Source: a virus
Taxonomy: Duplodnaviria > Heunggongvirae > Uroviricota > Caudoviricetes
Direction: 5' to 3' (one strand)
Virus record (IMG/VR): IMGVR_UViG_2660238548_000003
Span: 1-11,452 of that record
Length of the DNA: 11,452 nucleotides
Position numbers and translations under genes: made by a program. Positions 9,059 to 9,290 of the stretch are shown here, one piece after another (the first letter of the stretch is position 1; each line of letters opens with the position of its first letter). The notes beneath the pieces are model-generated. The model saw nothing but the letters and a program-made list of their open reading frames with translations, searched no databases and was not told the origin of the DNA.

Positions 9059-9187
9059 ACCCTAATCATCATATGCATCACTATTATAGTGACGGCACTG
9101 GTAACGAGGAAAGACCTCTGCGAGGTACGAATCCGAACCGGCCAGACGGAGGTCGCTGTCTTCACAGCTTACGAATCTGAGGAGTAA
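9059..9187 (+). pseudogene. hok-family (HokD/Gef-like) toxin gene remnant, 5'-truncated
   Basis: Frame open from 9059 reads TLIIICITIIVTALVTRKDLCEVRIRTGQTEVAVFTAYESEE then stop, matching the Hok family C-terminal two-thirds (RKDLCEVRIRTGQTEVAVFTAYE). No ATG and no first ~9 codons; a TAA lies in frame at 9056-9058, 14 nt after the stop of the 342-aa gene. Confidence 0.75.
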
Positions 9188-9257
9188 GAGTGACCTGGCG
9201 AGGGAGAAATCCCTCGCCACCTCTGATGTGTCAGGCATCCTCAACGCACCCGCACTT

Positions 9258-9290
9258 AACCCGCTTCGTCGGGTTTTTGTTTTGATTTTC
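9258..9290 (+). terminator. Rho-independent terminator (AACCCG-cttcgt-CGGGTT followed by TTTTTGTTTTGATTTT); the inherited hok mRNA 3' end
   Basis: GC stem followed by a T-rich run on the plus strand. Just upstream is an 8-bp GNRA-tetraloop hairpin GCGAGGGA-gaaa-TCCCTCGC at 9198-9217, consistent with the structured hok 3' region. Confidence 0.7.

Follow-up and report, generated by a model that had tools for sequence, protein, structure and literature searches.

The window analyzed here (the whole stretch of 11,452 nucleotides at the start of IMG/VR record IMGVR_UViG_2660238548_000003) is the early-right arm, or early-right operon, of a lambdoid, Qin/Rac-like prophage, and at positions 9059–9187 (+ strand) it carries what is very probably a non-functional relic of a toxin gene, the 3' two-thirds of an inactivated hokD-type type I toxin locus. 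This segment, which we call hok', consists of 42 codons that correspond to HokD residues 10–51, plus a stop codon. The genes of the window run in the order CI-type repressor (minus strand), DnaC/IstB-like ATPase, DUF1627, P63C-domain gene, hok', rem, DUF968 (YdfU) and RusA, so the segment lies in the rem-ydfU slot and has the properties of a hok locus inactivated by a rearrangement of the kind found at hokD/relF in E. coli K-12. In the history that we favor, one illegitimate recombination would have joined an AT-rich P63C cargo gene, by way of a 16-nt filler, to hok codon 10. On the hok side this event would have deleted all that precedes codon 10 (promoter, tac element, sok and its target, mok leader, Shine-Dalgarno sequence, start codon and codons 1–9), and on the cargo side the terminator hairpin that relatives of the P63C gene have after their own stop codon. 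What is left would be a passenger, made up of an open but unexpressed Hok frame, a 3'-UTR hairpin, an fbi (fold-back-inhibition) element without its partner and a terminator. That terminator probably still halts transcription entering from the cargo gene when the polymerase is not antiterminated, as the parallel with relBE-hokD of K-12 suggests.

The family assignment is secure. The frame (frame 2) follows a TAA codon at 9056–9058, reads TLIIICITIIVTALVTRKDLCEVRIRTGQTEVAVFTAYESEE from 9059 through 9184 and ends at a second TAA (9185–9187). Its peptide matches the Pfam HOK_GEF family (PF01848) over profile positions 6–42 of 42 with 78.2 bits (E=3.5e-22; the cut-off is 22 bits), covers positions 10–50 of 50 of PHROG 251 ("MokW-like host killing") and is identical to residues 11–51 of K-12 HokD at 37 of 41 positions, so the preliminary description, made from the letters of the DNA, was correct in calling it a Hok-family protein. 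With the NCBIfam Hok subfamily model the peptide scores 49 bits and does not reach the cut-off of 73; neither does the intact HokD of comparison locus L003. At the DNA level the segment (residues 10–51, GAAA hairpin, fbi element and terminator) is 92–99.7% identical to the intact alleles of L003 and L004, and 5355 of the 5426 complete E. coli genomes, 454 plasmid records and 101 phage records have a match to the hok part.

All of the matches to intact hok genes in the E. coli genomes, plasmids and phages begin at window position 9060. Alignment to the intact loci L003 and L004 shows that hokD codons 1–9 (MKQQKAML[IV]), the Shine-Dalgarno sequence and a leader of ~170 nt are absent, and the hok promoter and 5' tac element are also missing from the whole window; hok' does not possess the full ~50-codon Hok frame with a canonical start and Shine-Dalgarno sequence. 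The Rfam model RF01794 ("sok"), which spans the hok leader from its 5' end to the hok AUG, has no match in the whole window at E<=1 (as a positive control, the same model gives 120.1 bits, E=9e-29, on nucleotides 2777–2952 of intact L004). When the 5' halves of L003 and L004 were compared with the window by blastn and short-word blastn, only chance 9–11-mers were found (E>=0.59); homology to these 5' halves is thus present nowhere in the window, and no mok leader frame is present. The alignment, the Rfam result and the 5'-half search together confirm the earlier claim that the start codon, about nine codons and the mok/sok region are gone. The breakpoint was also said to lie close to the stop codon of the cargo gene, and it does, within about 17 nt: the P63C stop codon (TAG, 9040–9042) is 17 nt before the start of the Hok frame, and between them is the junction filler TTTCGGAGAGGTTTAA (9043–9058, + strand, 16 nt), which contains a Shine-Dalgarno-like GGAGAGG (9047–9053) and the TAA (9056–9058) that closes the Hok frame on its upstream side. 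The filler is identical in every copy of the junction, and it matches neither the 3' flanks of 34 P63C relatives nor intact hok loci. The preliminary description attributed the damage to an upstream insertion; the junction that it placed there is real, but a simple insertion, which would have displaced the hok 5' half to the far side of the cargo, is ruled out by the blastn searches, and because that lost half is found nowhere in the window the event is better described as a replacement or deletion fusion than as a clean insertion.

The cargo gene occupies 8017–9042 (+ strand) and encodes 341 amino acids from an ATG at 8017, a probable start that is supported by the RefSeq start in L001 (the mechanically called open reading frame opens at 7981). 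Its protein matches Pfam P63C (E=5e-32) and phrog_2384 (E=6e-138), and its G+C content of 36–45% (with a dip to 36–40%) compares with about 48–55% in the hok remnant and the prophage flanks. DNA homology to its relatives is confined to the coding sequence (8001/8015 through 9035/9041). The closer relatives, with 88–92% amino acid and about 78% DNA identity, are in Enterobacter, Citrobacter, Morganella and many IMG/VR contigs. Proteins about 50–55% identical over their full length are present in very distant phyla, among them Acidobacteriota, Nitrospirota, Syntrophia and Alphaproteobacteria (L010–L060), an unusually wide distribution for an accessory prophage gene of unassigned function. Among the 34 relatives whose 3' flanks were compared, most have a hairpin of their own directly after the stop codon and none has hok, so the fusion removed the 3' flank of the cargo gene as well. 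A PADLOC scan of the P63C protein and hok' found no defence-system match. Considered as a candidate prophage "moron", a cargo unit of atypical base composition with a promoter and a terminator of its own, the P63C gene shows the G+C dip and has a terminator downstream, and no + strand sigma-70-like promoter was found in 7865–8016. The slot between DUF551-type genes and hok seems to be a preferred site for cargo genes; in L004 a Ser/Thr protein kinase and PP2C phosphatase pair (1041–2535, minus strand) lies directly upstream of the intact hokD.

Downstream of the Hok frame the 3' parts of a hok locus are in good order. The conserved hok 3'-UTR stem-loop is a GAAA-tetraloop hairpin at 9196–9219 (+ strand; a 10-bp stem of 9196–9205 and 9210–9219, with the loop at 9206–9209), which is retained by all of the intact and truncated copies examined; in L005 and L007 it is one base pair shorter and has one G-U pair, but it folds all the same. 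It is followed by the orphan fbi element CCTCAACGCACCCGCA (9239–9254, + strand), whose partner in intact loci is the 5' end of the mRNA, and by the intrinsic hok terminator (9258–9284, + strand), with a stem region at 9258–9275 (a 6-bp G+C-rich stem and 6-nt loop) and then TTTTTGTTTT, the T-run ending at about 9284. Both the hairpin and the terminator are identical to those of intact L004; the preliminary description had reported both and had placed each to within 2 nt. The long-range pairing in which the fbi element takes part cannot form here, since fbi is kept and tac is gone. In intact loci tac is GCGGGTGCTTGAGG (the 5' end of the L004 mRNA is GCGGGUGCUUGAGG), and in the minimum-energy fold of intact L004 nucleotides 1–14 are paired with nucleotides 380–394, a duplex of -33 kcal/mol, whereas the best fbi partner in the cargo region of the window reaches only -19.9 kcal/mol. 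A search of the whole window for the tac motif with up to one mismatch found none. The fbi element of L005 and L007 has one substitution. The terminator varies among sister truncated copies, being weakened in L001 and L002 and absent or replaced in L005 and L007. The preliminary description had the cargo transcript probably ending at the hok terminator, which is plausible in view of K-12 relBEF (PMC3598666).

It does not appear that the intact terminator of the window was simply kept when the locus was truncated. Compared with the truncated lineage L001, the window has 2 mismatches in 5800–9175 and then 10 in 9176–9290. Compared with intact L004, it has 9 differences in 9060–9085, one at 9127 and then only an indel at 9519 up to position 9737 (2 differences over 9086–9737), and from 9128–9175 onward the right part of the window is 99.7% identical to the intact hokD-rem allele. 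This mosaic pattern of mismatches places a homologous crossover inside the remnant, in the interval 9128–9175, with the L001 lineage on its left and L004 on its right, and it points to an intact hokD-rem allele as the source from which the 3' fold and terminator were imported. Thus the earlier statement that these 3' elements are intact holds for their presence in this window, but probably not for their having been retained from the original remnant. The single indel that separates the window from L004 across 9128–9737 is in an A-run within rem (9409–9658), where there are 8 A's at 9512–9519 and 7 in the intact rem genes of L003 and L004; the extra A causes a +1 frameshift with overlapping open reading frames at 9409–9537 and 9440–9658, and it may be either a real pseudogene mutation or a homopolymer sequencing error.

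Six of the 5426 complete E. coli genomes, and one IMG/VR contig (L005), have the same junction (25-mer GGAGAGGTTTAAACCCTAATCATCA), 99–100% identical over 126 nt, and the 40-amino-acid junction product (P0108) is found on >250 contigs, adjoined by the P63C gene every time. The sequence that follows the junction differs among these copies. In this window it is rem, in L001 it is a small hypothetical gene, and in L005 and L007 it is another rem with DUF1367, YbcO and a Q-like gene behind it. In L002 a pair of genes for an HTH regulator and an ImmA/IrrE metallopeptidase (3615–4460) follows the hok' remnant in place of rem. The copies sit in at least four different downstream contexts, and since the junction is nearly identical in all of them it had a single origin and later moved between prophage backbones. 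The module boundaries that the window shares with L002 are at 7719 and 9288. The first of these falls within the conserved C-terminal ~48 codons of a DUF551-like gene (open reading frame 7331–7864), and this conserved 3' patch (7719–7864) seems to be another short recombination linker. The background represented by L007, L008, L009 and the L005 contig, which is the commonest one for the P63C-hok' junction, has a Pertussis_S1 / Enterotoxin_a gene (about 5500–6123 in L007, L008 and L009) just downstream of the Q-like antiterminator gene; these are ADP-ribosyltransferase toxin A-subunit domains, and in Stx phages the Shiga toxin genes are located just downstream of the Q antiterminator gene.

The first 26 nt of the remnant have about 9 differences, mostly synonymous or V to I, from L004 and from every intact allele sampled, which suggests that the truncated ancestor was a divergent but functional hok allele. 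An exact 29-mer scan for an intact allele with these first 26 nt had no hit in either the GTDB species genomes or the JGI metagenomes, and in IMG/VR the 29-mer occurs in one contig only, which carries the same truncated junction; sensitive blastn searches of E. coli genomes, plasmids and phages found no intact allele with more than 87–89% identity over these 26 nt. The hok' frame of L005 and L007 has two non-synonymous and 0 synonymous changes, and residue changes among truncated alleles include V to I and A to V in P0108 and others in P0074 and P0051. Although the numbers are small, residue changes without accompanying synonymous changes are consistent with relaxed constraint on hok'. In every copy seen the Hok frame has stayed open, which counts against its being a remnant, but with a junction this young (copies share 99.9% identity in the cargo gene) an open frame says little either way.

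Several features indicate that this frame no longer makes a toxin. GTG 9089, the one canonical start in the frame, lacks a Shine-Dalgarno sequence and would give a 32-amino-acid product without most of the membrane helix; no ATG, GTG or TTG is in frame between the TAA at 9056–9058 and this GTG. K2 and K5 are lost and the hydrophobic run is about 14–16 residues, compared with about 20 in HokD, so that hok' is predicted not to have the ~20-residue N-terminal helix that follows basic residues; any peptide would be missing the two N-terminal lysines together with about 6 membrane-helix residues. In the hok gene of plasmid R1, Hok is translated only when Mok is translated as far as the hok start, substitutions at AUG positions 2 and 3 were recovered as loss-of-toxicity mutations, and toxicity requires both Mok translation and an intact AUG (PMC9841398). 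With the mok leader gone and no usable start codon, mok-coupled initiation is not available and we infer that no toxic Hok can be made; the earlier conclusion that the toxin was inactivated rather than retained is thereby supported, and strongly so.

Of the other readings of this segment, the one that fares best holds that the hok 3' end was co-opted and is now under selection as the 3' UTR of the P63C gene, supplying an mRNA-stabilizing hairpin and a terminator. The cargo gene lacks the post-stop hairpin of its relatives and now stops 216 nt short of the hok terminator, every truncated copy has kept the GAAA hairpin, and no piece of the K-12 relBEF mRNA is more abundant than the relF/hokD part (PMC3598666). 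We nevertheless consider selection of this sort unlikely, since copies with the same junction have not conserved the terminator (it is weak in L001 and L002 and replaced in L005 and L007) and recent import from an intact allele accounts for the intact one in the window. In addition, this region would be transcribed in the lytic cycle by antiterminated RNA polymerase, which in lambdoid phages ignores such terminators.

A second reading takes the segment to be a real gene. In the sister genomes RefSeq annotates a 40-amino-acid "Hok/Gef family protein", WP_071999547.1, that has the same junction and frame as the window, differs from it by one residue (P for S near the C-terminus) and begins at the ATC equivalent to 9065–9067, so that the peptide would start (M)IICITIIVTALVTRK... 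and act as a full or attenuated membrane toxin, translated perhaps by re-initiation after the P63C stop codon 23 nt upstream. Besides the RefSeq coding sequence itself, the occurrence of the 40-amino-acid forms on so many contigs, the Shine-Dalgarno-like GGAGAGG, and a peptide that still covers 37 of the 42 positions of Pfam HOK_GEF and has the conserved cysteine speak for it. On the other side, ATC is a very poor initiator in E. coli, and its spacing from GGAGAGG is 11 nt, above the optimum. With the two N-terminal lysines gone, the hydrophobic stretch is shortened from about 20 to about 14 residues, which is short for a membrane helix. The changes in the truncated alleles are all non-synonymous, and the RefSeq annotation is driven by homology and is not experimental. 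Moreover, changes at AUG position 3 of R1 hok are among the recovered loss-of-toxicity mutations in spite of a native Shine-Dalgarno sequence and mok coupling (PMC9841398). A real gene at this position is quite improbable, the RefSeq protein is unlikely to be expressed, and the evidence here favors a pseudogene remnant. Two other open reading frames overlap the segment. A synonymous ATC to ATA change specific to the truncated alleles creates an ATG at 9072–9074, 18 nt from the Shine-Dalgarno-like sequence, and the 35-amino-acid frame that it opens (9072–9179, MHHYYSDGTGNEERPLRG...), which is open in L005 too, is spurious: it is hok read in another frame and matches no family. A minus-strand open reading frame at 9062–9292 (76 amino acids, TTG start) is without support.

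An extension of the real-gene reading, and one that we regard as more improbable still, makes a new unit of two genes out of P63C and the shortened Hok frame, in which re-initiation at the AUC/AUA cluster at 9065–9073 would give a membrane peptide of 38–40 amino acids. If that were true, P63C translation rather than Sok RNA would set the dose of Hok peptide, and a type I toxin would have been rewired into a protein-coupled effector, for example of abortive infection or lysis timing. Finally, the idea that the junction is an assembly or sequencing artefact joining unrelated reads has nothing but the abrupt G+C change in its favor and is almost certainly wrong, given that the junction recurs in six complete E. 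coli genomes of different sources, one IMG/VR contig and many drafts.

The inactivated hok' remnant has a close parallel in the Qin prophage of K-12, where relB-relE-hokD occupies the same slot, directly upstream of rem and ydfU/DUF968. In both places the promoter, tac, sok and mok have been replaced by unrelated cargo in the same orientation (relBE in K-12, the P63C-domain gene in the window) and the hok 3' UTR and terminator have been retained. The two differ in where the break fell. The K-12 breakpoint is ~18 nt upstream of the hokD ATG, so that the Shine-Dalgarno sequence, the start codon and the full 51-codon frame survive; that of the window is 27 nt inside the Hok frame and, unlike K-12, costs it the start and nine codons. 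The two breakpoints, about 45 nt apart, are independent events. In K-12, relBE and relF/hokD share a transcript, and the fragment of it that accumulates to the highest level is the relF part (PMC3598666). According to the account of Pedersen and Gerdes 1999 given in PMC7232551, the K-12 hok loci have been inactivated by IS elements, point mutation or rearrangement, and the inactivation of hokD is a "major genetic rearrangement"; the relBE-hokD fusion point is that rearrangement.

Intact prophage hok/sok loci (of the hokD type, and hokW-sokW of Sakai prophage Sp5, PMC8621323) share hok' residues 10–51 and the 3' elements with the window, which has no promoter, tac, sok gene or sok target, mok, Shine-Dalgarno sequence, ATG or codons 1–9. 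The hok/sok system of plasmid R1 is of the same protein family, and the intact relatives of hok' follow the same mRNA logic of a 5' tac and a 3' fbi (PMC9841398); unlike R1 hok/sok, the window keeps only the 3' partner, fbi, and the regulatory switch cannot operate. The leaders of L003 and L004 have an upstream ATG 19 codons before the hok ATG and in frame with hok (P0002 and P0004). Since hokD-type loci have such an in-frame ATG at the mok position, the databases have many 70-amino-acid "Hok family toxin" entries that are N-terminally extended Hok proteins and not the product of a distinct overlapping frame.

The finding is mainly of value as an annotation correction and for the natural history of prophages. 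The 40-amino-acid "Hok/Gef family protein" that RefSeq places here is best regarded as a pseudogene remnant, and per-genome counts of Hok toxins should leave it out. As a recombination scar the remnant belongs to a kind familiar from E. coli K-12, and what is known of the hok/sok mechanism is unchanged by it. The slot just upstream of hokD-rem has been hit independently by cargo replacement at least two times, by relBE in K-12 and by the P63C gene in the window, and elsewhere the same slot holds kinase/phosphatase or other genes. The hok 3' sequence is near-universal in E. coli prophages, and a remnant such as this one would thus serve as a patch of homology at which adjacent modules can be swapped.
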